Counted from the stretch's first letter, positions 3 to 24,743 are shown. The stretch: 39,244 bases of DNA from an uncultured Rikenellaceae bacterium (GCA_964411285.1 CAYPKL010000187.1:1-39244); one strand, 5' to 3'. A program made the numbers and translations. Notes: generated from the letters alone by a model not told the origin.

Positions 3-1733
3 TGCCCTGCAATGTTTACTAAAATTGATTCAATTGCAGGTTCTGCTTCTTCAAGGTTTACATGGTTACCCTGCCATGAAGCGGTAAGAAGCCAGCCTTA
101 TGATATCATCATCAAATCTGATGATTCCTATGATGGACTAAAATTATCGGATATCGATAATATGAAGATTAAAGTACTTGGACCCCCGCCAGTTTTGAAC
201 AGCGCCCTGCCTGAGGGTAAATTCGTTCGTCTCAGATGGAACAATTACGGAACCGGCTATATTTCAGGCTTCAGCATTTACAGACGGGAGGGAGCTTCAA
301 CCTTTAAGCCTGATTCATGTACTGCCGGGATTCCATCCTCAACGGGCTTTCTGAAAATAGGATACATTGAAGGCAGTTCTGCAACATCATTTGTTGACAC
401 CGACAACGGACAGGGATTGCAATATGGAAAAGAATACACATACAGAATTGTCGCAGTGTATCCTAACGGAACTGAAAGCAAGGCTTCAGATGAAATTACA
501 TCATCGCTCGTTTCAGGGATTCCGGTGATAACACATGTCAGTGTCAGGAGTACCTCAGTGGCAAACGGATCAATTTACATCAGCTGGGTAAAACCTGCCA
601 GACTTGATACTATTCCCGCCAATGGTCCTTATGAATACAGAATATACAGAGCTGAAGGAATTACGGGAACAAATTATCAGCAGGTGAGATCAATAATTAC
701 AGCAACACTTAATGAAACTGTTTTTATCGACACACTTATCAATACCCAGGTGAATGGCTATATTTATAAAATTGAGTTATACAATAATGCTCCCGGTAAC
801 AGATTCCTTATCGGAGAACCGGGTTATGCTTCATCAGTGTTCCTTTCCGCCAGCCCTGGTGACGACAAAGTGCGTTTTGTTATTAACCGTAATGTACCCT
901 GGATAAATTCAAGATATGATTTTTACAGGTTGAACGAAGGCACAATGAAATATGATTCAATTGGTTCAACAAACCAACTCACATACATCGATTACGGACT
1001 GACAAACGGAAAACAATATTGCTACCTGGTAAAATCTGTCGGTGGCTATGTTCCGGAGAACATGCCAAAGAATCTGGTAAATTTCTCAGAAACCATATGT
1101 TCCACTCCTTTGGACAACGAGGCTCCCTGTACGCCGGAAATAAGCGTAACAAGCCAGTGCGACAGTCTTTATAATACAATCAGGTGGACTGTTACAGGAG
1201 CAGATTGCCTTAATGATGTGGCCGGCTACATGATATGGTATAAAATGATGAATGAAGGAGAACTTTCTCTTATTCACACAATAAACGATAAGAATACATT
1301 CCTGTACAAACATTATCCGGGTGAAGTGATATCTGGATGCTATACCGTTACTACATTTGATAATGACGGAAATGATAGCGAAAAGCCGGCTACGGTTTGT
1401 ATAGATTCCTGTAATTTCTATGAAATACCTAATGTATTCACACCGAATGGCGACAATTTTAATGAAAAGCTGATAGCTAAAACGACAGGACTGGTTGAAA
1501 AAATCGACATTAAAATTTTTAACCGTTATGGAGTGCTTATCTTCCAGACCGACGAACCTAAAATTAACTGGGACGGTACATATAAAGGCAAAATTGTTTC
1601 ACCGGGAGTATATTTTTATCAATGTGATGTTTTTGAAAGAAGAATTTCAGGAATTGAACAATTCCACCTTTCAGGTTTTGTTCATGTAATAACCGAAAAA
1701 GGTGCAACGATTAATAAGGAAATTTTAAAATAA
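3..1733 (+). CDS. Secreted repeat-domain (Fn3/Ig-like) surface protein with T9SS type-B (gliding-motility-associated) C-terminal sorting domain; 5' end cut by window edge
   Basis: The frame is open back to the window start, and the first Met has no signal peptide, so the gene is probably 5'-truncated. The C-terminal ~90 aa ('YEIPNVFTPNGDNFNEKL...IKIFNRYGVLIF...WDGTYKGKIVSPGVYFYQ') match the PNxFTPNGDGxND-type CTD signature. Confidence 0.8.
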   Translation, partial: CPAMFTKIDSIAGSASSRFTWLPCHEAVRSQPYDIIIKSDDSYDGLKLSDIDNMKIKVLGPPPVLNSALPEGKFVRLRWNNYGTGYISGFSIYRREGASTFKPDSCTAGIPSSTGFLKIGYIEGSSATSFVDTDNGQGLQYGKEYTYRIVAVYPNGTESKASDEITSSLVSGIPVITHVSVRSTSVANGSIYISWVKPARLDTIPANGPYEYRIYRAEGITGTNYQQVRSIITATLNETVFIDTLINTQVNGYIYKIELYNNAPGNRFLIGEPGYASSVFLSASPGDDKVRFVINRNVPWINSRYDFYRLNEGTMKYDSIGSTNQLTYIDYGLTNGKQYCYLVKSVGGYVPENMPKNLVNFSETICSTPLDNEAPCTPEISVTSQCDSLYNTIRWTVTGADCLNDVAGYMIWYKMMNEGELSLIHTINDKNTFLYKHYPGEVISGCYTVTTFDNDGNDSEKPATVCIDSCNFYEIPNVFTPNGDNFNEKLIAKTTGLVEKIDIKIFNRYGVLIFQTDEPKINWDGTYKGKIVSPGVYFYQCDVFERRISGIEQFHLSGFVHVITEKGATINKEILK

Positions 1734-9776: not shown

Positions 9777-11726
9777 TTATTTATATGGTAATAATGATGG
9801 CATTCCCGGCTCAAAGTTGTAAGGACTGAGCAATTGCTCTCCTGAAACCACAACAGGTTGGGTCCTTGAATATTCCGGGAGGTTGGGAAAAAATCCCAAC
9901 CTCACCTGCAAGGTGTTAAAGACCATATTGTCATTTCTGATTCTTATTCCAACGCCTATAGAGGAAAGAAAATCACCGCTGCCCACATGCTCGTTGGTAT
10001 CAAACAGAAATCCGAAATCAGTAAATCCAAAAAAGGCAAATTTAAATCCATAAAAGTTTACGGGGCTGAAAAGGACTGATTCAATGTTGAATGAAAGCCG
10101 TTGAGTTCCCCCGACTGTATCATTCCTGAAACCAGAAAAACCATTCTCACGGTTAAAAGAAAGATATTCATCTGAATATCTGTCAAATCCCCGTGTGTAA
10201 TCTACATTAACAAAGTTCCTGATGCGCGACCGGCCCAAATAAAGCATATTAGATATAAAGTTGGTCCTCAGCAGTAACATTCCCTGTTCAGTCCGGCTGT
10301 TAATAATAAATGCTGCAAAACCAGCTGAACTGTAAAAATATCCAATACTCTTGATTGAGTGGCCTATAGAAAGGCTGGTACCCAGATAAGTTCGTTGTTT
10401 GAATTCACTTATTTCTCTGCCGGCGGTAAAATCAATCAATCCGCCGTATGGAATATCCTCGGTCCTTCCATATCCGTAAATCAGGTTGGTTTTGTAGAAT
10501 TTCTGGACCGACAGAGCTACAGAACCGAGAAATATTTTATTCTTCTGAAGGCGATGGTACGAATCCGGTTGAATTACGGGATGGTTGAATACATTATTGT
10601 TTTTATACCTGGCGCCTATAATAAAACGGGATACTCTTTCAGGATTTATTAAAAATGATCTCGAAATCCAGTAATCCTGAAGGTTATATTTCAAAGGCTC
10701 AGGTTCAGTACTGGAGTTAAAATCTTCTGTTGTAAACATCTCCTTGATCGAAACTCCTCCTGCATATTTCGTTGTGGAGCTGATAAGTTTCCTGCTAAGA
10801 TCAAATCCGTAGGTTTTTTCCCCAAGTCCGTCATAGAAGAAGAGATCGAGATTAATAAAGGTTTTATTTATATTGTTTACCAGATATTTGGCACCAAAAC
10901 CGGGTGAGTCTGGAAATCTCGAATTATATGGAACTTCAATCCGGAATTCATGACCCATTCCGAAAATATTCTTGTCATAGAGTGAAACAGATCCCTTTTT
11001 TAGACTGCCGATGGTGATACCTGCCCCCAGGGAGTAGATATCTTTGGTCAGAACCATTATATCTGCTTCACTTTCGGAAACAGGTACCACGATAATTTTT
11101 GCATCATTTATAAACGGAAGGTCCCTGAGTAATCTTTCATTGTCGCTCAATGTAAGAGGTGATATTGAATCGCCTGCTGAAAACAGCAGGTTTTTCCTGA
11201 TAATGTTCTCGCTGGTATTGATATGGGTCTTGTTAAGCAAGCTCTCCAACCCGTTTGGATTGAAAGCTGCCGGACTTTCGATATTTGATCCAAATACACT
11301 AAGCCGGCTAATTTCTATTTTCCGTATCTTCTTTCCTGCAAATTCAATATAGCTTACATCGCTGGTCCTTGTTATAGATTTACTGACTGTCTTGTCAGGA
11401 GAAATAATCAGAAAATCAAAGAGTTTACGTGTGACGATTTTTTTAGATGCCCTGCTTTTAAGTGAATCAAGGAATATTACAGTCTTGTACCTTTCAGGAT
11501 CAGAAAAAGGAATGAGATAAACATCCTGCCGGTAGCTGGTATCGATAAAATAGAGTCTGATGTTTTTTGGATTTATGAGAGGTGCTGTAAATGGACGCTG
11601 CAATAATGTGTCCTGATCCGGTGTTTTTTGAGAGTATAATGGATTACAAAAAAACAGAAACGCCGGGATTAATAAAACAGATATCGAATACCGGTGTTGT
11701 CCTGTTTTATTTGTTTCAGGTTTCAT
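9777..11726 (-). CDS. Omp85/BamA-family-like outer-membrane beta-barrel protein
   Basis: Signal peptide 'VLLIPAFLFFCNPLYSQ'. The C-terminal region resembles the Omp85 barrel end ('GFSGFRND..GGTQRLSFNIE...FFGFTDFGFLFD...SIGVGIRIRN...LQVRLGF'). The family call is from pattern only. Confidence 0.55.
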   Translation of the reverse strand: MKPETNKTGQHRYSISVLLIPAFLFFCNPLYSQKTPDQDTLLQRPFTAPLINPKNIRLYFIDTSYRQDVYLIPFSDPERYKTVIFLDSLKSRASKKIVTRKLFDFLIISPDKTVSKSITRTSDVSYIEFAGKKIRKIEISRLSVFGSNIESPAAFNPNGLESLLNKTHINTSENIIRKNLLFSAGDSISPLTLSDNERLLRDLPFINDAKIIVVPVSESEADIMVLTKDIYSLGAGITIGSLKKGSVSLYDKNIFGMGHEFRIEVPYNSRFPDSPGFGAKYLVNNINKTFINLDLFFYDGLGEKTYGFDLSRKLISSTTKYAGGVSIKEMFTTEDFNSSTEPEPLKYNLQDYWISRSFLINPERVSRFIIGARYKNNNVFNHPVIQPDSYHRLQKNKIFLGSVALSVQKFYKTNLIYGYGRTEDIPYGGLIDFTAGREISEFKQRTYLGTSLSIGHSIKSIGYFYSSAGFAAFIINSRTEQGMLLLRTNFISNMLYLGRSRIRNFVNVDYTRGFDRYSDEYLSFNRENGFSGFRNDTVGGTQRLSFNIESVLFSPVNFYGFKFAFFGFTDFGFLFDTNEHVGSGDFLSSIGVGIRIRNDNMVFNTLQVRLGFFPNLPEYSRTQPVVVSGEQLLSPYNFEPGMPSLLPYK

Positions 11727-12426
11727 GGTATTTATTATTCAACACATCGTCTGAATTGAACTGGAATCCAAGACGTTTACCTGTTATCACCCGTGAATGT
11801 TGAATTTTCGCCTCAGCTTGTCCTACCGTCGCTATTTTAACCGTATCGTATGGGGGGACAAGTAAATCGAATTCAAGTGAGTATTGTATTGCTGTAGAAA
11901 TAATTAATTGTAATGAGGACCTGCTGATTGCCTCATTCCCGTAATTTGAGAAAAGCATTCCCATCTGTCTTTTACCTTCAACAAAATACTGGTTCTCATG
12001 ATTAATGAATATTCTTGCGATTAAATAACCAAGATCATCTAATCTGGAATACCTGAATGAATCAAAAAGGAAGTTATAAATATTAATTATGCCCGAGTAT
12101 GCGTTGAATTTATTCTTTTGTATATAGGGTGTTTTCCATGCAGGATGTTCACGGTCGAACTGAAATATATTTGAATGCATGCTAAAAAGCAGTATATCAC
12201 CTGCTACTTTCACCTGTGCATCAAAATTGCTCCTGTCGGTATATTCCAATTTAATCCGGTTATCAAGCCCTCCCAGACTGGTATTTATATCCCTCGACAA
12301 AGTTTTTAAGATATCCTTTATAACAGCGAACCACTCAAGGGTATTATCATATACTTTTTGTTTAAGGAGCGATTTTTCCTTTAGGGTTCCGATAATTACA
12401 AGCTTTTTATCATCCATTTCGGCCAT
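11716..12426 (-). CDS. Uncharacterised cytoplasmic protein (no recognisable domain)
   Basis: Intact 236-aa ORF with no signal peptide. Its stop overlaps the start of the Omp85-like gene by 11 nt, and it lies downstream of proS on the same strand. Confidence 0.6.
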   Translation of the reverse strand: MAEMDDKKLVIIGTLKEKSLLKQKVYDNTLEWFAVIKDILKTLSRDINTSLGGLDNRIKLEYTDRSNFDAQVKVAGDILLFSMHSNIFQFDREHPAWKTPYIQKNKFNAYSGIINIYNFLFDSFRYSRLDDLGYLIARIFINHENQYFVEGKRQMGMLFSNYGNEAISRSSLQLIISTAIQYSLEFDLLVPPYDTVKIATVGQAEAKIQHSRVITGKRLGFQFNSDDVLNNKYHET

Positions 12427-12574: not shown

Positions 12575-14050
12575 TTAATATGATCTGGCAAATAAAACAC
12601 GCCTTTTGGAAGGTTTCCCGGAATAAATACATTTACCATCCTCTTCGGGAGAATCAAAAGGAATGCACCTGATAGTTGCTTTAGTCTCCTCTTTTATTTT
12701 TTCCTCAGTTTCCGGAGTTCCATCCCAATGGGCCAGAATAAATCCGCCGGTACTGTCAAGAACTTCCAGGAAGTCATTCCAATTATCAACCCGGAAAGTG
12801 TTTTCATTCCTGAAGTTAACCGCCCTTGTAAATATATTGTTCTGAATATCATTTAATAGTTCAGGGATCAGGGCAGGTACTTTTTGTATCGGTACCGTCT
12901 CCTTTTCCAGCGTATCCCTTCTTGCAATCTCCACAGTTTCATTTTCAAGATCGCGCGGTCCGATGGCAATCCTTACAGGAACACCCTTAAGTTCATAATC
13001 GGCAAATTTCCATCCCGGCTTATTTGTATCCCTGTCATCATATTTCACAGAGATCCCTGTTTTTTCAAGATCGGCTTTTAGAAGCTTAGCTTTTTCCGAT
13101 ATCTTTTCCAGCTGTTCTGATGTTTTATAAATTGGTATAATTACAACCTGGAGAGGTGCCAGTTTCGGCGGTAGTATAAGTCCGCGGTTGTCGGAATGTG
13201 CCATTATCAAAGCCCCAACCATCCTGGTTGACAATCCCCAGGAGGTAGCCCATACATATTCCAGTTTCCCGGTCTTATCCGTAAACTGAACATCAAATGC
13301 TTTTGCAAAATTCTGGCCCAGAAAATGGCTTGTTCCTGCCTGAAGAGCCTTCCCATCCTGCATTAATGCTTCGATTGTATAGGTATCCAGTGCTCCGGCA
13401 AACTTTTCATTTTCACTTTTATACCCTCTTATGACAGGGAGAGCCATATAACTCTCTGCAAAATCAGAATATACATTTATCATCTTCTCGGTTTCTTCGA
13501 TTGCCTCTTCACGGGTAGAATGTGCAGTATGCCCCTCCTGCCAGAGAAACTCAGCTGTTCTCAGAAAAAGCCTTGTCCGCATTTCCCACCTTACCACATT
13601 TGCCCACTGATTAATCAGGATTGGAAGATCACGGTATGATTGAATCCAGTTTTTGTACGAATTCCATATTATCGTTTCAGATGTCGGACGGATTATTAAT
13701 TCTTCTTCAAGTTTTGCAGCAGGATCAACAATGATCCCATTTCCTGACTCATCGTTTTTAAGCCTGTAATGCGTTACAACAGCACATTCCTTGGCAAACC
13801 CTTTAACATGAGCAGCTTCCTTGCTGAAAAATGATTTTGGAATAAAAAGCGGGAAATAGGCATTAACATGACCTGTAGCCTTGAACATTTTATCTAACTG
13901 AGCCTGAATCTTTTCCCAAATTGCGTAACCATAGGGCTTGATAACCATACATCCCCTTACTGCGGAATTTTCTGCCAGATCTGCCTTGATGACCAGATCA
14001 TTATACCATTGTGCATAATTTTCATCCCTGTTCGTTAAGAATTTCGCCAT
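12575..14050 (-). CDS. proS: Prolyl-tRNA synthetase, archaeal/eukaryote-like class II type
   Basis: Starts '[27 protein letters not shown]' at the internal ATG at 14050. Class II motifs are present ('[14 protein letters not shown]', '[11 protein letters not shown]'), and the C-terminus ends in '...ARSY', typical of this ProRS type. Confidence 0.92.
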
Positions 14051-14141
14051 TTTTTGGTATGGTATTTGTTTTAATACATAAAAAATAAGGTCGTAAAAAT
14101 AAATATAAAACTTGGAAATTAATAAAACCAGGGGGTGCATC

Positions 14142-15593
14142 ATGAAAACAATATCTTACATTGGCATCTTATCGGCACTTCTGCTTACAGGATTCTCTGC
14201 AAAAGCACAGGATGCTGACTATGAAAATTACAGCAACGATGACGCCAGAGTAATCGTAAACAACTATTATGATAATAATGGCTCTGATTACTATTATTCA
14301 TCAAGAATTAACAGGTTTCACAGATCGTATGCTGCTTTTGATTATTATTCACCTGTCTATACTGATTCATACTGGTACGATTACGATCCATGGTCGTGGG
14401 GTATAAGTATTTACAGCGGAGGTTTCGGATTTAACCTTGGATATAATCCCTATTATTACAATTATTATCCTTACAGCTACGGTTGGAACGATCCATATTA
14501 TTATGATTCTTATTACCGGGGATATTCCCCCTGGTACTATAGTTACTGGAGACCATCGATCTGCTGGGGATTAGGAAGTCTCTGGTCAGATTTTACGTGG
14601 GGTTTAACCCGACCCTTCTATTGGATGAATAACATGTGGCACGGATTCGGACATTCATATTATGGCTATCATAATCATTTTTATAATGATTATTCCTACC
14701 GTTATTCATCAGATTACGGGAGGCATAATTTTGAAGCAGGAGGACGTGGTTTCAGACAGGGATCCAATCAGGAGTCCAGGAGAGGTGAATCAATTAATAA
14801 TCCTTCAGGGAGAGATGGAAATTACCGCCGGGAAAATTATGATAACGTATCCGGAAATATTGAGGGAAGAAGGAACGGCAATTCCGCAATTAACAACGGA
14901 CAAAATCGCGGTTCAGCCGACAGATCATATTCAGCCGGCAGAGGATCATCATCTCCGGATTTACGAAGATCAGATAATTCTGGTTCTGCTTCCCGGAATT
15001 CCGGAAATCAGGGTAGCTATAACACTACCAACCGGAGAACCGGTGAAATGAGGAGCAATCCGGGATACAATAACAGGGTAAATCAGAACGCTTCCAGTCC
15101 TGCTACACGAAGAGCAGTTGAAACAGGTTCGAACCGTGGATATGCAATTAACAATAATTCATCAGGAAATTCAAATGTATCCAAACGGAGCACAATGGCC
15201 GGTAATGCAAACCAGCCCTCCTCCCGGCGTTCCTCAGTGTATGGTCAGACTAATAATTCGCACAGCACCAACCGGTCTGTGTCCGGAAGTTTGGGCAGAC
15301 CTTCAGTCAAGTCCGGATCTATGAGTGCATCAGCAAGAAATTCTGGCTCAATATCACGCAATTCAGGCTCTATATCGCGTAGTTCCGGCTCAATGTCACG
15401 CGGCTCAGGTTCAATGTCACGAAGTTCAGGCTCAGTGTCACGAAGTTCAGGCTCAGTGTCACGAAGTTCGGGGTCAATGTCACGAAGTTCAGGCTCAATG
15501 TCAAGAAGTTCGGGTTCAATGTCACGAAGTTCGGGCTCAGTGTCACGAAGTTCGGGCTCTTCTCATTCCTCCGGAAACAGGGGAAGAAGATAG
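14142..15593 (+). CDS. Secreted low-complexity protein: signal peptide, Tyr/Trp-rich region, Ser/Arg/Asn/Gly-rich polycationic tail with 7-aa tandem repeats
   Basis: Signal peptide '[24 protein letters not shown]' at the ATG at 14142. The aromatic-rich block includes e.g. '[35 protein letters not shown]'. The tail ends '...[21 protein letters not shown]'. It is a paralog of the next gene. Confidence 0.7.
15339..15569 (+). repeat. 11 tandem copies of a 21-nt unit (consensus agt tca ggc tca atg/gtg tca cga) encoding (S/N/G)SGS(M/V/I)SR, in frame inside the 14142-15593 CDS
   Basis: Counted directly. Units begin at 15339, 15360, 15381, 15402, 15423, 15444, 15465, 15486, 15507, 15528 and 15549. 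Units 5 and 6 are identical, and the last unit is degenerate. Confidence 0.95.
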
Positions 15594-15646
15594 GCCGGAT
15601 TTATAATGTTTTGAACTGAATTAAATTGTAACTTTAGAAAAAATAT

Positions 15647-15654
15647 TAAATTTG
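15647..15654 (+). promoter_or_regulatory. Possible Bacteroidota -7 promoter box (TAAATTTG, fits TAnnTTTG)
   Basis: Exact match to the TAnnTTTG consensus in the intergenic region, but ~95 nt upstream of the ATG at 15749. Confidence 0.3.
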
Positions 15655-15748
15655 TTGGAACGTTATATGATCATCCTGAAAAGCAAATAATTTGGTACGG
15701 TATTTGAGCATATATAAAAGATAACAAAAACAAATAGAAAGAAATAAA

Positions 15749-17074
15749 ATGAAAGCACTATACTACATATTCGGAATTGTAATTCTTACTCTGGCTTCCT
15801 GCTCTTCAGGACTTTATGTAGGAACTGAATATGATGATATTTACTATCAAAAATCAGACAGACCGGTAACCCGGGCTCAGTCGGCAGATAATCAGCCTAT
15901 TGTTGAGGGTAATCTTAAGTCGGATAATTATTATAATAATATCTATGCAACTGATACTCTTGTATCCAATGAATATTCAGACGCAGTTGACAATAATGAT
16001 GCAGGGGTTTATAATGACTATTATGATAATTTTGATAATTACTCTTATTCAGGCAGGTTAAGGAGATTTTATGGAAGTTCCTTTTATCCTTACTGGAGAG
16101 ATCCTTTTTACATGATGCCTTCTTTCGGATACAATTCTTTCTATGGCGGCTTCCCTTATTCCTATAATCCTTATTCCTACGATTCATATTTCTATGATCC
16201 ATACTATTCATATGGTTATGGCGGTTATTATGGCGGCGGGTTTAATGGCGGTTATTATGGCAACTATTTTTACGGAGGATTATATAACAGATTTTACAGT
16301 CCTTATTACAGTTACTATTCTCCTTATTATGGTGAAAGTAATATCTCTTATGGAAGAAGAGAAAGGCAGAGCACTTATTCGACAAAATGGTCAGGCGGCA
16401 ATGCTTCTCCCGAGGCTTCAGCATCCAGAAGAGCTACAAATGCCACCGGAGGATCAGGTACCTCAGAAGCCGCCAGGCCTGCTTCAGGTGAGGTTGTAAC
16501 CTCAGGTTCACGGAGAACTTCATCACAGGGGACTTCTCAGCAAGCTGGAACAGCTACTGAAAGAAAACTTGATCAGAATTCTTCAAAATCCGGTAGTGAG
16601 AACCTGTCAGGCAATCAGTCAAGAAGGAGTTCCGCTGATTCAAGACCTGAATACAACTCTGTCAACAGGAGCTATACACCCAGCTACAGTAATCCCAGGA
16701 TGAGCACACGGCCATCATACAATAATACAAGGGTTAATTCAAATGTTAACAACAATAATTCATCAACCCGCAGATATTATCAGAATTCATCAAACAGCGG
16801 AAGAAACAATTCATCATATTCTTCAGGTCAGCCCAGATCCAACTCTTCAAATAGTGGTTCAGGAAGTTATTCAACTCCCTCCAGAAGAAGCTCAGGCGGA
16901 GGAACCTACTCAGGAGGATCTTACCGTTCATCAGGAGGATCAACCTATAGCAGTGGTTCATCTTCAGGATCATATTCGAGAAGCAGTGGTGGCTCATATT
17001 CATCAGGCTCCTCCTCTTCTTCATCCTCCGGGAGTTCATCAGGCTCATCAGGCTCATCAGGCAGAAGGAGATAG
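15749..17074 (+). CDS. Lipoprotein paralog of the preceding gene: lipobox, Tyr/Gly-rich region, Ser/Arg/Asn/Gly-rich tail
   Basis: Lipoprotein signal 'MKALYYIFGIVILTLASC'. It shares the module 'NDYYDNFDNYSYSGRLRRFY' with gene A. The aromatic block includes 'SYGYGGYYGGGFNGGYYGNYFYGGLYNRFYSPYYSYYSPYYG'. The tail ends 'SSSSSSSGSSSGSSGSSGRRR'. Confidence 0.7.
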   Translation: MKALYYIFGIVILTLASCSSGLYVGTEYDDIYYQKSDRPVTRAQSADNQPIVEGNLKSDNYYNNIYATDTLVSNEYSDAVDNNDAGVYNDYYDNFDNYSYSGRLRRFYGSSFYPYWRDPFYMMPSFGYNSFYGGFPYSYNPYSYDSYFYDPYYSYGYGGYYGGGFNGGYYGNYFYGGLYNRFYSPYYSYYSPYYGESNISYGRRERQSTYSTKWSGGNASPEASASRRATNATGGSGTSEAARPASGEVVTSGSRRTSSQGTSQQAGTATERKLDQNSSKSGSENLSGNQSRRSSADSRPEYNSVNRSYTPSYSNPRMSTRPSYNNTRVNSNVNNNNSSTRRYYQNSSNSGRNNSSYSSGQPRSNSSNSGSGSYSTPSRRSSGGGTYSGGSYRSSGGSTYSSGSSSGSYSRSSGGSYSSGSSSSSSSGSSSGSSGSSGRRR

Positions 17075-17127
17075 TAAAAACAAAAAATTTTGCATGATTT
17101 AAATTCATTCTGTTCAGAGTGCGGGAA

Positions 17128-17135
17128 TAGGTTTA
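17128..17135 (+). promoter_or_regulatory. Possible -7 promoter box (TAGGTTTA, one mismatch to TAnnTTTG)
   Basis: Lies 19 nt upstream of the ATG at 17154. It has the same TAGGTTT core as the box upstream of citDE. Confidence 0.3.
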
Positions 17136-17153
17136 AATAAAAATTAAATTCCA

Positions 17154-18635
17154 ATGAAAAAAATAACAATAGTTCTGGCTTCGATATTCCTCACATTTTC
17201 CGGAATATTAGCTCAAAATGTAGATGACGCTCTTAGATATTCGCAGATATTCTATAATGGGACAGCAAGATTTATGTCAATGGGTGGGGCTTTTACCGCT
17301 GTTGGAGGCGATCTGTCGACACTTACACAAAATCCAGCAGGCCTTGGAGTATTCAGATCATCAGAAATATCAATCACACCCCAGTTATTCCATTCAAAAA
17401 CAACTGCTGGATTTAATGGATCAACTACTGATTACCTTTATAATTTCAACCTGGGACAGGCAGGTATTGTAAGCAAATTGATCTCTTCAAATAAGGAAAC
17501 AGGGTTGGTTTCCCTTAACTTCGGATATTCATTCAACAAGACTAACAATCTTAATTCAACCGTAAGAATCCAGGGAATAAACAACACCAGCTCTATGGCC
17601 GATTACTGGGCCGACATAAGTGAAGGAACCAATTATAATGACTTAAGCGGCGCCGCAGGCCTTGCTTACGACGCCTGGATTATTGATACAATTACAGGAA
17701 CTAATTCAACAAGTTACGGAACAGCGTTCAATAATTACGGTGATAATATCGGCTCAGTTTACGGACAAAACATGCGAAGGATCATAACCAACCAGGGATA
17801 TACAGGTGAACATGCATTTTCAATCGGTGGCAATATTTCAAATAAAATATTTTTTGGTGCAACATTGGGAATAAACCGGTTAAAATATACTGGTCATTAT
17901 GAACATCTTGAAAAAGCTGACTACGTTATGGACGCCGGATTAAAAGATTTTACATACACCGAACACTTTGAGAATACCGGAACCGGAGTCTCATTTAAGA
18001 TCGGGGCAATAATAAAACCAATCGAAAGCATCAGGATCGGACTGGCATTCCATTCACCTACCAGATACAAAATTGACGAGTATTTCTATGATAACATTAG
18101 TTCTAATTTTGATGGTAATGACAGCTATGAATTCGAGAATGATCCCAACAGGTACAATTATGCTCTGACAACTCCTTTCAGAGCCATAGGCGGTTTTGCA
18201 GTACAGATCAGGAAAGTTGCCATTTTAAGCGCTGATTATGAATATATTGATTATTCTACTGCAAAATTCTCTGAAACAGGGGATGATTATGATTACAGCG
18301 AGAAGAATCTTGAGATAAAGAATACGCTGCAACGAACTGGTAATTTAAGGTTTGGAGGAGAATTCAGACTGAATAAATTGTATTTCAGGGGAGGTTACGG
18401 TTATTATGGTAAAGTATTCAGACCGGGAGAATTAAATGAAGATATGCACCATAGCTCAATCTCTTGCGGTTTAGGCTTCAGGGAACAAAATTTTAATGTG
18501 GATCTTGGTTACGTAAACATGAGTAATTCTCAGGACTACATTCTTTACAATACTTTTTCAGAGAATGTATCATCATCTTTGAACACAACAAAAAATATTT
18601 TCATGGTTACGCTTGGCTATAAGTTTGGTTATTAA
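17154..18635 (+). CDS. FadL/OMPP1/TodX-like (PorV-like) outer-membrane beta-barrel protein
   Basis: Signal peptide 'MKKITIVLASIFLTFSGILAQ'. The N-terminal hatch-like segment 'ARFMSMGGAFTAVGGDLSTLTQNPAGLGVF' carries the NPA motif typical of FadL-family proteins. Alternating beta-strand patterning runs to the aromatic C-terminus '...LGYKFGY'. Confidence 0.65.
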   Translation: MKKITIVLASIFLTFSGILAQNVDDALRYSQIFYNGTARFMSMGGAFTAVGGDLSTLTQNPAGLGVFRSSEISITPQLFHSKTTAGFNGSTTDYLYNFNLGQAGIVSKLISSNKETGLVSLNFGYSFNKTNNLNSTVRIQGINNTSSMADYWADISEGTNYNDLSGAAGLAYDAWIIDTITGTNSTSYGTAFNNYGDNIGSVYGQNMRRIITNQGYTGEHAFSIGGNISNKIFFGATLGINRLKYTGHYEHLEKADYVMDAGLKDFTYTEHFENTGTGVSFKIGAIIKPIESIRIGLAFHSPTRYKIDEYFYDNISSNFDGNDSYEFENDPNRYNYALTTPFRAIGGFAVQIRKVAILSADYEYIDYSTAKFSETGDDYDYSEKNLEIKNTLQRTGNLRFGGEFRLNKLYFRGGYGYYGKVFRPGELNEDMHHSSISCGLGFREQNFNVDLGYVNMSNSQDYILYNTFSENVSSSLNTTKNIFMVTLGYKFGY

Positions 18636-18660
18636 TACTTTGAACTACTTCCGGTTAAAA

Positions 18661-18684
18661 AGGGCTCATAGAGCCTTTTTTTTT
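18661..18684 (+). terminator. Rho-independent terminator after the FadL-like gene
   Basis: 'agGGCTCataGAGCCttttttttt': a 5-bp GC stem extendable by G-U and A-U pairs, a 3-nt loop, and a 9-T run. Confidence 0.55.
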
Positions 18685-18733: not shown

Positions 18734-19336
18734 CTAAAGATACTCAATTGATTCCGGCCCCATATTGAATATAAGGTCAAGAATACTTAGCCGGGGTACA
18801 AATCCGCTGTTATTAAATACTTGTATATATGCCTTTTGATGGATATCTGACTTCACTTTTGGTGATATTCGGTACCTAAAATCATTATCTGGAACGGTAA
18901 CAGGTTCGTAAGAAAGGGTGTAAGAAATATTCTTATTTATTTGAAGGATTTCAAGGCATTTCTTAAGCAGTTCAATATTAAGATCGAGAAGGAATTTGTG
19001 ATTGCTGATCAGTATCTTTTCAAAACTGTCAGAAAAAAACTGGAAATAGGGTGAACGGTTATAAGAGGAGGTGAGGGCCCTTAAATGAATCTGCTGCCAT
19101 CTTTTTGAGTAATCGATCCTTACATCCTTTGTTTGTGTTTTAATACTTCCGCCTTTGAGAACAGGGACAGAAAGGTTCATTATACCGTTTGATGTGAGAA
19201 TCCTGCACCTGTTACGGTATGTCTGCTTCAGATAATTTTCTTCCTGTTCAATGCAGACTTCTTCAGAATTCCTGATATGACCGAAATATTCTGAGGGAGG
19301 GAAATAGGCAGTAGAGAGTAGTATTTTCCCGGGCAT
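18734..19336 (-). CDS. WbqC-family protein (function unknown)
   Basis: N-terminus 'LSTAYFPPSEYFGHI...EENYLKQTYRNRCRILTSNGIMNLSVPV' matches my memory of the WbqC-like family signature. The gene starts 7 nt after the larB stop. Confidence 0.7.
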   Translation of the reverse strand: MPGKILLSTAYFPPSEYFGHIRNSEEVCIEQEENYLKQTYRNRCRILTSNGIMNLSVPVLKGGSIKTQTKDVRIDYSKRWQQIHLRALTSSYNRSPYFQFFSDSFEKILISNHKFLLDLNIELLKKCLEILQINKNISYTLSYEPVTVPDNDFRYRISPKVKSDIHQKAYIQVFNNSGFVPRLSILDLIFNMGPESIEYL

Positions 19337-19343
19337 AAAAAAT

Positions 19344-20093
19344 CTACTTCATCTGATTGATCATACTTGCAGAAAAACCGGCTCCGAATCCATTATCGAT
19401 ATTTACCACGGTCACGCCGGAGGAGCAGCTGGTGAGCATCGCGAGAAGTGCGGAGATGCCTCCGAAATTTGCACCATATCCTACACTTGTAGGTACTGCA
19501 ATTACAGGTTTATCTACCAGACCGCCTACTACGCTTGCCAGTGCACCTTCCATTCCTGCTATTACAATAACTACCCTGCAGCTTCTTATTTCCGGTAGCT
19601 TGTCGACCAGACGGTGAATCCCCGCAACTCCGGCATCGTAAATCCTTAATATTTTATTACCAAGAAGTTCAGCGGTTACCGCAGCTTCTTCTGCAACAGG
19701 AATATCAGATGTCCCGGCGGTAATAACTGCAATTCTACCTTCCGGACTTACAAGTTTCTTCTTCTGAACGCTAATGATCCTGGCTTCGGGATAAAAAAGT
19801 GCTGAAGCGACTGCTTTTTTCACAGCCTTAAACATCTCTTCACTGGCACGCGTTCCAACAACATTGTTTTCTTTCTCAGACATTATTCTGAAAATTTCAA
19901 CCACCTGACCGACTGATTTGCCTGCACAATATATAATTTCAGGGTAGCCGGTACGAATTTCCCTGTGATGATCTATTCTTGCAAATCCAAGATCTTTGTA
20001 AGGAAAATCTCTGAGGACTTCAAGAGCCTGTTCAACACTTTTTTTTCCATCCCTTACTTCATTAAGAAGATTTTCAATTTCTTTTTTTGTCAT
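19344..20093 (-). CDS. larB: Nickel-pincer cofactor biosynthesis protein LarB (PurE-like NaAD carboxylase/hydrolase)
   Basis: ~120-aa N-terminal extension followed by a PurE-like domain 'IAVITAGTSDIPVAEEAAVTAELLG...VIVIAGMEGALASVVGG'. The start overlaps the larE stop (ATGA). Confidence 0.85.
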   Translation of the reverse strand: MTKKEIENLLNEVRDGKKSVEQALEVLRDFPYKDLGFARIDHHREIRTGYPEIIYCAGKSVGQVVEIFRIMSEKENNVVGTRASEEMFKAVKKAVASALFYPEARIISVQKKKLVSPEGRIAVITAGTSDIPVAEEAAVTAELLGNKILRIYDAGVAGIHRLVDKLPEIRSCRVVIVIAGMEGALASVVGGLVDKPVIAVPTSVGYGANFGGISALLAMLTSCSSGVTVVNIDNGFGAGFSASMINQMK

Positions 20094-20893
20094 ACAATTG
20101 AATTTACCGGATCGGAGCTACCTGATCTGTATCCTTCGAGATCCAAAGATATATATCTGAATCCGATTTTTTTTAGATTCTCTATAATAAGTTCTTTTTC
20201 AGGTGTGTGAACAATCTTTTCCAGATATCCCGGGAGGCACTCAAGTCTTGCCAGATCACCATGGACTCTGACTCTGGTTCCCGGATAGCCTTTTGAAGTA
20301 AGAAAATACTCTGCTTTTTCAATCATATTAAGCACTACGGTATCGATTTCATTATTATAAGGAATTCTTGTAAGCAGACAGGCCATTGCAGGTTTGTCCC
20401 AAAACTGAAGGCCGGAATGGTGTGAAATCTCCCTTATATCATTTTTCGTCATTCCTGCCTCGAGCAGCGGACTTCTTATATTTAGCTCCTGTAAAGCTTT
20501 AAGCCCGGGCCTGAAAACTTTTGTGTCATCCGCATTTGTTCCGTCAATAACGTGGCTGTATCCATTTTCTGCTGCAAACGAAAGTAATTCCGTAAAAAGA
20601 GTCTTTTTACAGAGATAACATCTTTCAACTGGATTATTTCTGATAACCTCAGGGAAAGTAATATCTATTATTTTGTGATTTATTCTGTGGGTTATGGCAA
20701 ACTCAGCAGCTTCTTTTATTTCAACGGCTGGAATATAGGGTGTCCTGATTGTTACACCAACGATATTGAGACTCTTCAGAGTATGCGCCCTGTAAAGAAG
20801 AAATGAACTGTCAACTCCTCCTGAAAAGGCAACGACGAATGATTTGAGGTCCTTCAGAATTGTATCGAGTTTTTCCAGTAGATTATTTTCCAT
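20090..20893 (-). CDS. larE: NPN cofactor sulfur-insertion protein LarE (ATP pyrophosphatase, PP-loop)
   Basis: PP-loop 'VAFSGGVDSS', 'CYLCKK' (C92, C95) and 'PAMACLLTRIPY' (C172). Confidence 0.85.
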   Translation of the reverse strand: MENNLLEKLDTILKDLKSFVVAFSGGVDSSFLLYRAHTLKSLNIVGVTIRTPYIPAVEIKEAAEFAITHRINHKIIDITFPEVIRNNPVERCYLCKKTLFTELLSFAAENGYSHVIDGTNADDTKVFRPGLKALQELNIRSPLLEAGMTKNDIREISHHSGLQFWDKPAMACLLTRIPYNNEIDTVVLNMIEKAEYFLTSKGYPGTRVRVHGDLARLECLPGYLEKIVHTPEKELIIENLKKIGFRYISLDLEGYRSGSSDPVNSIV

Positions 20894-20896
20894 GGT

Positions 20897-22075
20897 TTAA
20901 TTCTGAGCCTTGGTTATTACTGAAATAATATTGTTATATACATCTTTTAAGGGGATTCTCCTTTCCAGGGCAATTCTTTTGCAATCTTCAAATTCAGGTT
21001 TAACAGATACCACTTTCCCCTTGAAATATGAGTGTTTTAAAGTGACCTCACCATATATTGTGGGAACCTTGCTGAATTCTCTTACAAGAGTATCTTTCCT
21101 GAATTGAAAAGTTCTGATCCCAAGTGATGTTGACTCTGAGAACACGATCTCTTTAACTAAGTCAGCCAGACCTGTTTCGCAGATTATGTTCAGTATTATT
21201 CCGGGTCTTCCTTTTTTCATGATGATGTTTGTATAAAACACATCTGAAGCGCCTGCTTTAAAAAGCCGGTCGGATATGTGCTCATAGAATTCAGGATTCA
21301 TGTCGTCGATATTACACTCAATATGGAGAGCATCATGTCCTGTATTTTCATTATCAGCAATTTCTCCAAGCGAAACTCTCAGAAGATTAGGAACATCAGG
21401 ATGATCCTTATGACCAACTCCATAGGCTGTTTTACTGATCCTGACAGAAGCGTTGCTGCCAAAATCAGTTCCCAGAGCGGAAAGTATTGCAGCACCGGTT
21501 GGGGTTGTTGCCTCAAAATCGACCCCCCCCTTCCTTACAGGAATCCCTTTGATGATTTCAATTGTTGCCGGAGCAGGAACAGGTAGTTTGCCATGTTCAC
21601 ATCTGACAAAACCTCCGCCAAGTTCAACTTCTGATACAAAAACCCTGTCAACATTAAGGGCATGAAAACAAATTGCTGCACCTGTAATATCAATAATGGA
21701 ATCAATGGCTCCAACCTCATGAAAATGAACCTCATTCACATCGATCCCATGAACAAGAGCTTCTGCTTCGGCCACCTTTCTGAAAATCTTCATTCCCGTT
21801 TTCTTAACGTCCTCATTAAGTGAGGAACCTGAAATTATTTGCTCAATATCTGAAAGGTGCCTGTGATTGTGATCATGGAGGGTCTGCTTTACCGTGACTT
21901 TGGTTCCCATTATGCCGTGCCGCTGGTCTTTTTCTGAAATCAGTTCCCAGCCTTTGAGATTTAATTTACTTAGTTCTTTAATAAGGAAATCTTTGTCGAC
22001 TCCTAACTCCAGCATTGCACCTAAATTCATATCACCGCTGATCCCGGAAAAACAATCATAAAATAATACTTTCAT
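20897..22075 (-). CDS. larC: Nickel insertion protein LarC (DUF111), single intact ORF
   Basis: N-terminus 'MKVLFYDCFSGISGDMNLGAM', His-rich 'TLHDHNHRHLSD', and a length typical of full LarC1+LarC2. Confidence 0.88.
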   Translation of the reverse strand: MKVLFYDCFSGISGDMNLGAMLELGVDKDFLIKELSKLNLKGWELISEKDQRHGIMGTKVTVKQTLHDHNHRHLSDIEQIISGSSLNEDVKKTGMKIFRKVAEAEALVHGIDVNEVHFHEVGAIDSIIDITGAAICFHALNVDRVFVSEVELGGGFVRCEHGKLPVPAPATIEIIKGIPVRKGGVDFEATTPTGAAILSALGTDFGSNASVRISKTAYGVGHKDHPDVPNLLRVSLGEIADNENTGHDALHIECNIDDMNPEFYEHISDRLFKAGASDVFYTNIIMKKGRPGIILNIICETGLADLVKEIVFSESTSLGIRTFQFRKDTLVREFSKVPTIYGEVTLKHSYFKGKVVSVKPEFEDCKRIALERRIPLKDVYNNIISVITKAQN

Positions 22076-22253
22076 ACATTCTTAACATTAAAAATATTAA
22101 ACAAATAATAACAAGGAAAGTTAATATAGATCAAATTCTGATTAATGAATTCAATCGGGTTGCTAATATACAATTTACATTGATTATGGAATAATAATAA
22201 AAAAATGTCGTATTTTTCGAATCCTTTCTGTTTATGGTTAGCAATGATTGGAA

Positions 22254-23177
22254 ATGATGAAAAGAAGAGCTTTTTTTAAAACCTCTCTCAGTGCCGGACT
22301 AGCCACAGGAGCTGTTTTTAGCTTAGGTGGTTATAATAAACTATGGGCATCTTCTCCGGTTGCTGCAAAATACGATATGATTGCAGTTATGGGTGGTAAC
22401 CCTGACTCAATGTTCGATCTGGGCATACAGGAGTTGGGAGGGATAGGTGAATTTGTAAAGAAAGGTCAAAAAGTACTGATTAAACCTAATATTGGATGGG
22501 ATGTCCTGCCTGACCTCGCTGCAAATACCAATCCCCTGCTTGTAAAAAGAATTATAGAACACTGCTTTAAAGCTGGTGCTAAGGAAGTTTATGTACTCGA
22601 TCATTCAATTGACAACTGGATAAATACCTATAAGAATTCCGGTATTGAAAAAGCCGCTAAATCAGCCGGGGCAAAAGTAGTACCCGCTAATTCTGAAAAA
22701 TATTATCAGGAGATAAGTATTCCCGCCGGAGTAAAGCTTAAAAACGCTAAAGTCCATGAGCTTCTACTGGAGACAGATGTTTATATAAACGTTCCTGTTT
22801 TAAAGGACCACAACTCAACACGAATGACCTGTTCCCTGAAAAATGCAATGGGACTTGTCTGGAACAGGGGATACTGGCATGCCAACAACCTCCATCAGTG
22901 CATTGCCGATTTTGCGTTGTTTGAGAAGAAACCGGCGCTTAATATTATTGACTGCTACAATGTTCTCGTAAAACATGGTCCAATGGGAGTTTCAAAAGAA
23001 GATGTTGTACAAATGAAGTCACTTATTATAACAACTGACTGGGTTGCAGGTGATGCCGCTGCTGCCAAAATGCTTGGTATTGAACCTGAAAAAATTGATT
23101 ATCTTCTTATTGCAAGCAAAATGGGAATTGGGAACATCAAGCTGGACACGCTTAATATTAAGCGTATTAAAATGTAG
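22254..23177 (+). CDS. Tat-signal DUF362-domain protein
   Basis: Twin-arginine signal 'MMKRRAFFKTSLSAGLATGAVF'. DUF362-like motifs 'KVLIKPNIG', 'VPVLKDHNSTRMTCSLKNAMG' and 'IIDCYNVLVKHGPMG' are present. There is no Cys cluster motif. Confidence 0.65.
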   Translation: MMKRRAFFKTSLSAGLATGAVFSLGGYNKLWASSPVAAKYDMIAVMGGNPDSMFDLGIQELGGIGEFVKKGQKVLIKPNIGWDVLPDLAANTNPLLVKRIIEHCFKAGAKEVYVLDHSIDNWINTYKNSGIEKAAKSAGAKVVPANSEKYYQEISIPAGVKLKNAKVHELLLETDVYINVPVLKDHNSTRMTCSLKNAMGLVWNRGYWHANNLHQCIADFALFEKKPALNIIDCYNVLVKHGPMGVSKEDVVQMKSLIITTDWVAGDAAAAKMLGIEPEKIDYLLIASKMGIGNIKLDTLNIKRIKM

Positions 23178-23183
23178 TTGAAA

Positions 23184-24743
23184 ATGACCTCATCCTTTCT
23201 CAGAAGATTTCGCATAGTTTTTTCTGCAGTTATCCTGGTATTCTTCATTTTTATTTTTATCGATTTCAAAGCGATAATGCCTAAGAATTATATTAATTAT
23301 CTGCTTTATTTCCAGTTTATTCCTTCTGTTATAAAATTTTTTAACCTTAAGACAATTGCTGCAGGAGGATTTTTAGTTGTGCTGTTACTTACTCTCCTCT
23401 CCGGCAGGACATATTGCTCATTCCTTTGTCCTCTTGGAATAGGACAGGACCTTTTCAGCAGAATAGGTGGTTACATCAAAAAAAAATTCAGAAGGTTTGG
23501 TTATAAAAAACCTTATACAATTATCCGTTATTCAATTCTGGTTATTACAATCGCCGGGACTATAATCTGGGGTATATATTTTTTGACACTCCTGGATCCC
23601 TACAGCATATTCGGCAGATTTATGACCTATCTTATAAAACCGGTTGTTTTATTGTTAAATAATTTTTTTTCGGGGATACTTGTTAAATTTGATAATTATT
23701 CATTAAATCATATTCAACTGGATGGCTATGAACTTATTACTTACTCCTTACCATCAGCTTTCTTCATTATTGTAGGCCTCCTGTCACTGACAAAAGGCAG
23801 ACTCTATTGTAATATGATCTGTCCGGTAGGTACTTTTCTGGGATTTCTGTCAAAAATATCACTTTTCCGGATCAGGTACAATGAAAGCAAGTGTACCCGA
23901 TGCGGAAGATGTTCAATTGGATGTAAATCTTCATGTATCGACTTCCTGAATCACGAAATTGATGTAACCCGGTGTGTTAATTGTTTTGACTGCATTTATA
24001 CTTGTCCCGAAAAAGCTTTGTCTTACACCTTTATTGGTCACGAAACTGAAGACCGGAAAACTGATGAGAGCAAACGTAAATTTATCGCCGGATCACTTCT
24101 TCTTCTTTTTGGCATACCATATTCTTCAAGAGGACAGGAGAAAAGCGTTCCTGTTCCGAAAAGAGAGTCTACCGTTAAAGAAGAAAAAACATTTCCGGTC
24201 TGCCCTCCGGGCGCCGGATCTATTGAGGATTTCAACAGTCATTGTACAGCTTGCTCACTTTGCATTACAGTGTGCCCGAATAATGTGCTTGAGCCGGCCA
24301 TAAGGCAATACGGTATAGCTGGATTTATGCAGCCGGTGATGGATTATCATAAAGGTTTCTGTCAGTATAACTGCACAAAATGTACAGAAATTTGTCCCAC
24401 CTATGCATTAAAACCACTTTCTCTCGAGGCTAAGAAACTGAGTCAGATCGGGAAAGCTATATTTATTAAGGACAATTGCATCGTTAAAACTGAGAAGACT
24501 GCCTGTGGAGCCTGCTCAGAAAGCTGTCCGACAAAAGCTGTTTACATGATCCCGTATGAGGGTAATCTTGTTATTCCTGAAACAAACGAGGAAATATGTA
24601 TTGGCTGCGGACATTGTGAAAATGCTTGTCCGACAACTCCATACAAAGCTATTTATGTAAATGGTAATCCTATACATCTTGCAGCCAAAAAGCCTGAAGT
24701 AAAAGAAACGGGAATTACCAAACCTGAGGATTTCCCGTTTTAG
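23184..24743 (+). CDS. Membrane-bound NapH/MauN-like polyferredoxin (multiple 4Fe-4S motifs)
   Basis: The N-terminal half has several TM helices and two CxxxCP motifs ('CSFLCPLG', 'CNMICPVG'). The C-terminal half has about six ferredoxin-type motifs ('CTRCGRCSIGC', 'CVNCFDCIYTCP', 'CTACSLCITVCP', 'CTKCTEICP', 'CGACSESCP', 'CIGCGHCENACP'). Confidence 0.8.
   Translation: MTSSFLRRFRIVFSAVILVFFIFIFIDFKAIMPKNYINYLLYFQFIPSVIKFFNLKTIAAGGFLVVLLLTLLSGRTYCSFLCPLGIGQDLFSRIGGYIKKKFRRFGYKKPYTIIRYSILVITIAGTIIWGIYFLTLLDPYSIFGRFMTYLIKPVVLLLNNFFSGILVKFDNYSLNHIQLDGYELITYSLPSAFFIIVGLLSLTKGRLYCNMICPVGTFLGFLSKISLFRIRYNESKCTRCGRCSIGCKSSCIDFLNHEIDVTRCVNCFDCIYTCPEKALSYTFIGHETEDRKTDESKRKFIAGSLLLLFGIPYSSRGQEKSVPVPKRESTVKEEKTFPVCPPGAGSIEDFNSHCTACSLCITVCPNNVLEPAIRQYGIAGFMQPVMDYHKGFCQYNCTKCTEICPTYALKPLSLEAKKLSQIGKAIFIKDNCIVKTEKTACGACSESCPTKAVYMIPYEGNLVIPETNEEICIGCGHCENACPTTPYKAIYVNGNPIHLAAKKPEVKETGITKPEDFPF

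Follow-up and report, generated by a model that had tools for sequence, protein, structure and literature searches.

The stretch of DNA analysed here, 39,244 nt from an uncultured Rikenellaceae bacterium (GCA_964411285.1 CAYPKL010000187.1:1-39244; henceforth the window, along which all coordinates are counted), carries three consecutive same-strand open reading frames (ORFs), which ORF calling confirmed and which we designate genes A, B and C. They lie beside a divergently oriented gene for prolyl-tRNA synthetase, proS, and encode, in order, a secreted protein, a lipoprotein and an outer-membrane barrel (Table 1). A first-pass annotation of the window had interpreted them as a tandem of exported, tyrosine-rich paralogs followed by a barrel resembling FadL or PorV, and had proposed that the ensemble forms an undescribed envelope matrix. 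As judged by gene order across related genomes, the conserved unit is instead the lipoprotein B together with the barrel C, not A together with B. The pair is a two-gene outer-membrane module, widespread in Bacteroidota, in which a divergent proS, a lipoprotein and a FadL-fold barrel of approximately 490-510 amino acids (aa) follow one another.

Table 1. Features of the proS-A-B-C locus in window coordinates.
Feature	Position	Strand	Remarks
proS (prolyl-tRNA synthetase)	12575-14050	-	conserved divergent neighbour; probable start
Gene A	14142-15593	+	483 aa from ATG; lineage-specific paralog of B with a signal peptidase I signal, secreted
A signal peptide	14142-14207	+	22 residues; predicted cleavage before Gln23 (..SAKA/Q)
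A/B-shared motif in A	14259-14321	+	read from sequence
A aromatic low-complexity zone	14262-14726	+	residues 41-195; 37% Y/W/F
A conserved core	14289-14423	+	invariant or near-invariant columns, 15-sequence alignment
A polycationic tail	14727-15590	+	residues 196-483 (288 aa); net +31; ends NRGRR
21-nt tandem repeat	15337-15559	+	10.6 copies; encodes SRSSGS[MV] heptads in A tail
Gene B	15749-17074	+	441 aa; predicted outer-membrane lipoprotein, conserved barrel partner
B lipobox LTLASC	15785-15802	+	Cys18 is the lipidated residue
B anchor-proximal segment CSSGLYVGTEYDDIYY	15800-15847	+	invariant S20 L22 Y23 G25 E27 Y28 D29 D30 Y32 Y33
B motif NYYNNIYATDTLVSNEYSDAVD	15926-15991	+	YY[DK]N[IYL][FY] kept across classes
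B aromatic/Gly low-complexity zone	16004-16348	+	residues 86-200; 41% Y/W/F, 30% Tyr
A/B-shared motif NDYYDNFDNYSYSGRLRRFY in B	16013-16072	+	read from sequence
B motif shared with A, YSYSGRLRRFYGSSFYPYWRDPFY	16040-16111	+	hhalign anchor of the A family against the B family
B S/G/R/N/T tail	16349-17071	+	residues 201-441 (241 aa); net +21
B tail island YGRRERQSTYSTKW	16349-16390	+	conserved; ortholog form YGRRERxSxxSxKW
B tail island RPEYNSVNRSYTPSYSNPRMSTRPSYNNTRV	16643-16735	+	ortholog form RPEYNSVNRSYTPSYNNPRMSTRPSYNNxRV
B C-terminal SGRRR	17057-17071	+	...GRR/RRR end kept in nearly all B orthologs
Gene C	17154-18635	+	493 aa; FadL-fold outer-membrane barrel
C N-terminal tail/hatch QNVDDALRYSQIFYNGTARFMSMGGAFTAVGGDLSTLTQNPAGLGVF	17214-17354	+	invariant-column run, residues 21-71, 31-sequence alignment
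C NPA hatch motif	17331-17339	+	residues 60-62; N60 and P61 invariant, A62 at least 90% (31 sequences)
Hairpin terminator	18657-18681	+	11-bp stem and T run; common to the convergent wbqC gene

Evidence for the linkage of B and C comes from two sets of relatives and from three distant loci. The first set was obtained by scanning a single genome of each species for matches to an alignment of C, which gave 80 loci, all of uncultured Bacteroidales, with C identities of 38-79%; in every one with upstream DNA (approximately 75 metagenome-assembled genomes, or MAGs) C is directly preceded by a B-type ORF. Because the Bacteroidales neighbourhood is colinear throughout, adjacency within this set alone would be weak evidence. 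The three distant loci, whose flanking genes differ, nevertheless retain the order proS, lipoprotein and C homolog, and the second set, a sample of 80 Flavobacteriia-type metagenome loci, repeats that order: a C homolog of approximately 510 aa lies 3' of the lipoprotein in all 63 loci with enough downstream sequence and proS lies divergently upstream of it in 62 of 64, while what lies beyond C varies, with at least five gene families represented at that position. Synteny with a FadL-like barrel and proS, which the first-pass annotation had suggested checking, is thereby seen essentially without exception. The distances of the two proteins also correlate: with proS controlled for, the partial correlation amounts to 0.67 (n = 55) and 0.42 (n = 43), neither value being reached in any of 500 permutations; we take this co-variation as no more than suggestive. 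One locus (L031, JBLNAO010000259.1) has the Bacteroidales-type order of proS, B, C and wbqC-larB, with C 63% identical, in a MAG labelled 'Chloroflexota bacterium', a label that probably reflects binning contamination.

The same data bear on the possibility that B and C act independently, C being an ordinary FadL-type importer of fatty acids or hydrophobic compounds and B a stand-alone spacer or tether between outer membrane and peptidoglycan whose cationic tail binds the cell wall, with their adjacency reflecting only shared, growth-linked regulation beside proS. An importer would be consistent with the NPA hatch motif that C retains, a tether with the polycationic tail and probably periplasmic orientation of B, and shared regulation with the candidate promoter TAAATTTG in the A-B spacer and the short intergenic gaps. 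However, the adjacency is unbroken in the loci of Bacteroidales and in those of the Flavobacteriia type, with varying genes further out, and the rates of B and C correlate beyond what proS accounts for. The model for such a tether, Braun's lipoprotein (Lpp), is short, helical and trimeric and is cross-linked by way of a C-terminal Lys, a reaction for which Arg lacks the needed amine. B resembles Lpp as an outer-membrane lipoprotein that probably faces the periplasm and carries a conserved basic C-terminal residue, but it is long, predicted to be disordered and ends in Arg-Arg in nearly all orthologs, and we rejected an Lpp-type covalent tether for this reason. Independence of the two genes is, overall, unlikely.

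The B family is large. Searched against 1.84 billion representatives, a profile of the N-terminal part of B retrieved approximately 2000 clusters (50% identity): 1989 representatives score E ≤ 1e-3 and 519 score E ≤ 1e-10, with alignments that start at the N-terminus. Flavobacteriia-type relatives are 320-370 aa long and display the motifs SCGSYQY.G..DGIYG and YYKNYF, a zone of aromatic residues and Gly, and an S/R/T tail with RRG or RGRR at its end; those of Lacinutrix and Gelidibacter are annotated merely as 'hypothetical protein'. Neither A nor B (Pfam at E ≤ 1), nor ten distant family members, matched any Pfam or NCBIfam model, and a look through the literature on tyrosine-rich or arginine-rich Bacteroidota lipoproteins yielded nothing specific, which agrees with the earlier impression that no characterized family has this combination of features. 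We propose to define the family by a lipobox Cys, the pattern C..Y.G...D[DG][IL]Y, the motif YY[DK]N, an aromatic/Gly zone and an S/R tail ending in RR. B displays all of these as well as the position between proS and a FadL-like barrel of approximately 500 aa, and gene A only the core, aromatic-zone and tail features.

Low-complexity sequence invites the suspicion that A and B are chance ORFs, the more so as other-frame ORFs overlap the repeat regions and wrong frames are called on truncated contigs. Yet frame, signal peptides, motifs and the C-terminal RR are kept over more than 150 loci and approximately 2000 clusters, which places the sequence features well beyond chance, and the protein at the same position in Flavobacterium johnsoniae, Fjoh_4940, has been detected by mass spectrometry. 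The first-pass annotation had staked its proposal on homologs of the N-terminal module and on expression or peptide evidence; homologs have been found, as have peptides of the protein at the corresponding position in F. johnsoniae. By this conservation, A and B are real, conserved genes; a gene-calling artefact is effectively refuted and its probability negligible. Assembly leaves its own mark at this locus. Short-read contigs of two loci (L005 and L007), in which the C gene is identical, break inside gene B, and the gene caller reports on these fragments a 119-aa wrong-frame ORF, in the frame of window positions 16743-17102. Many database homologs are 'partial' on the same account.

The kinship of A and B is distant. 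BLASTP of one against the other was not significant, whereas hhalign of the A family against the B family gave a probability of 98.7% over a region that begins at the R-[IL]-x-R-F motif and takes in the aromatic zone, a value to be read with composition bias in mind. Intermediates support it: single lipoproteins of other lineages match the cores of both A and B, and two of them (P0258 and P0398) combine a lipobox with the A-type motifs INNYY..YRINRFHR or SWGASIY. Family-level alignment identifies A and B as distant paralogs of which B is the ancestral form. Approximately 20 of the related loci in Bacteroidales have no gene A, and proS there borders on B, so that A is best described, on its distribution, as a clade-specific duplicate of B that is minus the lipobox and the first 90 or so residues and is confined to one Bacteroidales sub-clade. 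The tandem that had been put forward as the core of the system therefore survives as a case of paralogy, but not as a core unit.

Protein B consists almost entirely of short conserved blocks embedded in compositionally biased sequence. The lipidated Cys18 is present in all B orthologs with an intact N-terminus, so that the lipobox noticed earlier, like the cleavable signal peptide of A, is a retained feature. Adjacent to the anchor the orthologs keep SSGLYVGxEYDDLYY, of which C..Y.G...D[DG][IL]Y persists in the Flavobacteriia type. Bacteroidales orthologs then keep YYxNIYAADTLVS, in which D69-T70-L71 (15953-15961) is invariant in Bacteroidales and not conserved in the Flavobacteriia type; this triplet fits D-[ST]-[AILVMT], the general O-glycosylation sequon of Bacteroidota. 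Within the aromatic zone they keep YSYxGRLxRFYGNYFxPYWRDPFY. The tail (S33/G13/R11/N9/T7 %) would pass for simple low-complexity sequence were it not for the two islands listed in Table 1, the second of which recurs as SYTPSYN.PR in distant long forms too. The first-pass annotation had correctly singled out the aromatic stretches and the S/R/N/G/T tails of both proteins: A is 10% and B 13.6% tyrosine, where the ORFs of the window average 4.5%, the N-terminal parts of both are acidic, and the charge of the tails is carried almost only by Arg. An AlphaFold2 model of B residues 1-215 has a mean predicted local distance difference test (pLDDT) score of 40.7 and a predicted TM-score (pTM) of 0.14, its only structure being short helices over conserved motifs, including one at residues 100-108 within the A-shared motif, whose helix-prone consensus is Y-S-x-R-[IL]-x-R-F-[HY], and a search of PDB sequences with the B profile returned nothing meaningful. 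Such a model is what one would expect of a disordered protein in which short linear motifs are interspersed.

Gene A shows the same plan in abbreviated form. Its ..KAQ cleavage motif is retained in orthologs, and its core contains S54, R55, I56, R58, F59, H60, Y63, F66, Y69, P71, T74, Y77, Y79, P83, G87, I90 and Y91 as invariant or near-invariant positions. The N-terminal 200 residues retrieved 60 homolog clusters, with approximately 50% identity over the first 100 or so aa and variable tails; the C-terminal xRR is retained in most orthologs. The A tail (S29/G14/R14/N13 %) is much shorter in homologs than in the window, and the 21-nt repeat is, by this comparison, a lineage-specific expansion of it.

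Similarities of segments rich in Tyr/Gly and in Arg/Ser within one chain to FUS-type proteins, with their [G/S]Y[G/S] stretches and RS/RGG tails, and to FG-nucleoporins are resemblances only: A and B are bacterial and envelope-located, B is lipid-anchored, and there is no homology. Curli and Fap amyloid systems combine amyloid subunit repeats with a dedicated channel of the CsgG or FapF type, whereas C is FadL-like and A and B are without any Pfam match.

The barrel has more than 3900 homologs, of which the best 120 listed are 64-100% identical. C scores 26.0 bits against Pfam Toluene_X (PF03349), below the gathering threshold of 29.7, and 17.7 bits against UPF0164 where the cut-off is 21.4; many C orthologs carry a precomputed PF03349 match. 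Its AlphaFold2 model (pTM 0.70, low confidence at residues 1-67) retrieves with Foldseek, about equally (E-values of 1e-12 to 4e-14), BamG of Bacteroides thetaiotaomicron (BtBamG, 9hiv_F), the F. johnsoniae chain 9n2d_B of the barrel assembly machinery (BAM), TodX, FadL and PgBamG; with TbuX included, E-values run from 1e-11 to 4e-14 and target-normalized TM-scores mostly from 0.53 to 0.66. According to this model C has the FadL-type beta-barrel fold, which bears out the earlier assignment of a 493-aa FadL-family barrel. The most conserved stretch of C is the N-terminal tail that holds NPA. C shares with FadL, TodX and TbuX (PF03349), which transport hydrophobic compounds, the barrel fold and this N-terminal hatch; it differs in scoring below the Pfam cut-off, in its longer N-tail and in its obligate lipoprotein partner, encoded upstream and absent from classical FadL. 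Counted from NPA (N60 less a 20-residue signal peptide, against N33 of FadL), the mature N-tail is approximately 7 residues longer than that of FadL, which puts its length between that of FadL and that of BamG, a comparison that involves the low-confidence part of the model. In BamG an N-terminal extension of approximately 10-12 residues threads the lateral opening.

The surroundings of the module in the window are as follows. The mechanical proS ORF (12575-14143, minus strand) would give 522 aa, against 491 aa in orthologs (domains tRNA-synt_2b, HGTP_anticodon and ProRS-C_1), and translation probably begins at its Met32 (nt 14050), so that approximately 91 nt remain as a divergent promoter region before gene A. 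The A-B spacer is 155 nt and the B-C gap 79 nt; a terminator scan listed none in the latter. At 15647-15654, in the A-B spacer, TAAATTTG fits TAnnTTTG, the -7 promoter pattern of Bacteroidota, so that B and C may have a promoter of their own. A megablast search of the locus against plasmids gave no match. Between tilS and proS lie two ORFs without Pfam matches, of 649 aa (9777-11726, minus strand) and 236 aa (11716-12426, minus strand); they are kept in nearly all of the 80 related Bacteroidales loci, the 236-aa protein at 58-94% identity, and may represent another uncharacterized conserved pair. Convergent with C, positions 18734-24743 hold a WbqC-like gene followed by matches to AIRC, QueC (faint) and Ni_insertion and by DUF362 and ferredoxin-domain (Fer4) genes. 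This arrangement is conserved 3' of C across related loci and suggests a nickel-pincer cofactor cluster, with AIRC as larB-like, QueC as larE-like and Ni_insertion as larC-like.

A pair of the same kind occurs in F. johnsoniae, where Fjoh_4939, a proline-tRNA ligase gene (proS), adjoins Fjoh_4940 and Fjoh_4941 (PMC12045153). Fjoh_4940 is a signal peptidase II lipoprotein classed as periplasm-facing, detected at approximately 46 spectral counts and increased 2.6-fold on depletion of TamL; Fjoh_4941 is a FadL-family barrel of approximately 55 kDa, increased 5.6-fold under the same treatment (PMC12045153). That study already remarks on the adjacency of the two genes and assigns no function to Fjoh_4940 or to the pair (PMC12045153). 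It follows that a model organism expresses the pair, whose levels respond to outer-membrane perturbation. Its gene order and protein types are those of the window locus; Flavobacteriia-type lipoproteins differ from that of the window in length and motifs and have no A paralog. Six tryptic peptides of Fjoh_4941 in the supplement of the F. johnsoniae BAM paper map colinearly onto flavobacterial C homologs, whereas the supplements of that paper did not yield Fjoh_4940 (A5FA28). Fjoh_4940 and Fjoh_4941 are very probably the orthologous pair of B and C.

The closest structural precedent is within the BAM complex of Bacteroidota, which contains a FadL-like barrel, BamG, that grips the lipidated N-terminus of a lipoprotein, BamH (PMC12578637, PMC12611786). 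A paralogous BamG2-BamH2 pair forms an operon, BamG and BamH of F. johnsoniae are Fjoh_1412 and Fjoh_0823, and five proteins co-purify with F. johnsoniae BamA and six with that of B. thetaiotaomicron, the former set being without Fjoh_4940 and Fjoh_4941 (PMC12578637, PMC12611786). Also described is extracellular loop 3 (EL3) of Bacteroidota BamA, a flexible loop of 38 residues rich in Tyr, Gly and Asn (PMC12578637). In composition EL3 resembles the aromatic zones of the two proteins A and B, and disorder of the Tyr/Gly-rich kind may recur as a theme in the Bacteroidota envelope.

In BamG-BamH, a FadL-fold barrel of 14 strands is joined by a lipoprotein that docks through its conserved lipidated N-terminus; C-B would share this plan, and BamG is the top fold match of C. 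On these grounds B and C could themselves be a BamG/BamH-like pair that works with BamA in the biogenesis of outer-membrane proteins or lipoproteins, the Tyr/Gly zone being EL3-like. In addition to the fold matches, the conserved and lengthened N-tail of C, the operon of BamG2 and BamH2 and the composition of EL3 speak for such a role. The differences are nonetheless considerable. The two pairs have no sequence similarity, C is 90-100 residues longer than BamG, and PDB sequence searches with C and with the C profile retrieved nothing meaningful and no BamG chain; because the F. johnsoniae counterpart of C is Fjoh_4941, not Fjoh_1412, and because of the profile result, C was rejected as an ortholog of BamG. 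BamH is a folded, surface-exposed crescent or carbohydrate-binding-like domain with an export signal, whereas B is predicted to be disordered and has no such signal; with the pLDDT of B and its lack of any PDB sequence match, this also disposed of B as BamH. As the genes of the BamG/BamH pair proper are known in F. johnsoniae and Fjoh_4940 and Fjoh_4941 fall outside the named co-purifying set, a BAM-associated role for B and C strikes us as distinctly unlikely.

Where B resides is informative as to what it may do. The rule deduced for surface export of lipoproteins in this phylum calls for two or more acidic residues no further than six positions from the lipidated Cys (PMC12578637). No acidic residue occurs at positions +1 to +6 of B, so that B is not predicted to be surface-exposed and probably faces the periplasm; A, with a signal-peptidase-I signal only, would be a soluble periplasmic version of it. 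This orientation is at odds with the surface matrix of the first-pass annotation, in which exported A and B self-associate as amyloid, condensate or dityrosine-linked material, or bind polyanions such as extracellular DNA, capsule or lipopolysaccharide, and a PorV-like barrel serves as anchor or shuttle. The proposal is understandable in view of the zones that are 37-41% aromatic, the Arg-rich tails of net charge +21 to +31, the predicted disorder of B and a FadL-fold barrel encoded next door in an organism that has a type IX secretion system (T9SS), as indicated by the CHU_C (type B) sorting domain in the ORF at 12-1733 (plus strand). The latter match also implies that a T9SS sorting domain in A or B would have been detected. 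As the first-pass annotation had observed, there is none, by Pfam at E ≤ 1, and both were accordingly discarded as T9SS cargo. The signal of A by itself takes it no further than the periplasm, and Fjoh_4940, as noted, has been assigned the same orientation that we predict for B. The analogy with PorV is weak as well. C and PorV are both FadL-superfamily barrels of T9SS-bearing Bacteroidota, but the PorV2 model (PorVQ2) matches C weakly, over its last 70 or so residues and with 26.3 bits against 325, and no PorV occurs among the 50 best fold matches shown, the best being BamG, TodX and FadL. C was thus rejected as a PorV, and a surface layer of the kind proposed appears quite improbable.

We favour a reading, to which we assign a probability of roughly 0.45, in which B and C form a barrel-lipoprotein complex whose disordered aromatic zone and cationic tail work inside the envelope. 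The conserved anchor-proximal segment of B would dock onto barrel C in the way that the lipidated N-terminus of BamH docks onto BamG. The aromatic zone and cationic tail of B would then hang into the periplasm, where soluble A could join them, and these zones might self-associate via Tyr/Arg contacts or bind anionic material of the envelope, for instance peptidoglycan or the head groups of phospholipids. In this way a channel of the FadL type, for hydrophobic molecules, would be coupled to the cell wall or periplasm, with a presumptive role in outer-membrane or lipid homeostasis.

Several considerations weigh against this reading. The tight linkage of B and C could mean co-regulation only, and mirror-tree correlations of the kind reported above can be inflated by leftover phylogenetic signal, all the more as proS evolves more slowly and p-distances saturate. 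The rule for surface export is a heuristic, and B could still reach the surface, for example through the barrel. The low pLDDT of B may stem in part from a shallow alignment of 14 sequences, and the placement of Fjoh_4940 in the B family follows from gene order alone.

A bolder variant would see in B, together with A, a new class of disordered bacterial envelope protein whose Tyr/Gly zone and Arg/Ser tail form a self-associating phase where a FadL-type channel opens to the periplasm or the surface, in the manner of FG-nucleoporins or a condensate, the invariant C-terminal Arg-Arg being an undescribed signal for recognition or processing. We consider it unlikely; if true, such a phase might take up hydrophobic cargo, or attach to peptidoglycan or to anionic lipids.

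What is known, then, is the kind of system, a FadL-fold barrel-lipoprotein pair of Bacteroidota; what is undescribed is the family of disordered Tyr/Arg-rich lipoproteins and its fixed place beside proS. The novelty claimed by the first-pass annotation accordingly holds for family and position, but not for the adjacency of Fjoh_4940 and Fjoh_4941, already on record in the TamL study. The envelopes of Bacteroidota are built around barrel-lipoprotein complexes, and the FadL-like essential subunit of BAM was found only recently. B and C add a second FadL-like barrel with a lipoprotein, present in Bacteroidia- and Flavobacteriia-type genomes and fixed beside an essential housekeeping gene. B itself is unusual for bacteria in being composed almost wholly of short conserved motifs within Tyr-rich and Arg/Ser-rich disorder, and the family is testable in the genetically tractable F. 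johnsoniae by way of Fjoh_4940 and Fjoh_4941. The pair could reveal a new route for the handling of lipids or other hydrophobic molecules, or a new way in which Bacteroidota join their outer membrane to the cell wall.

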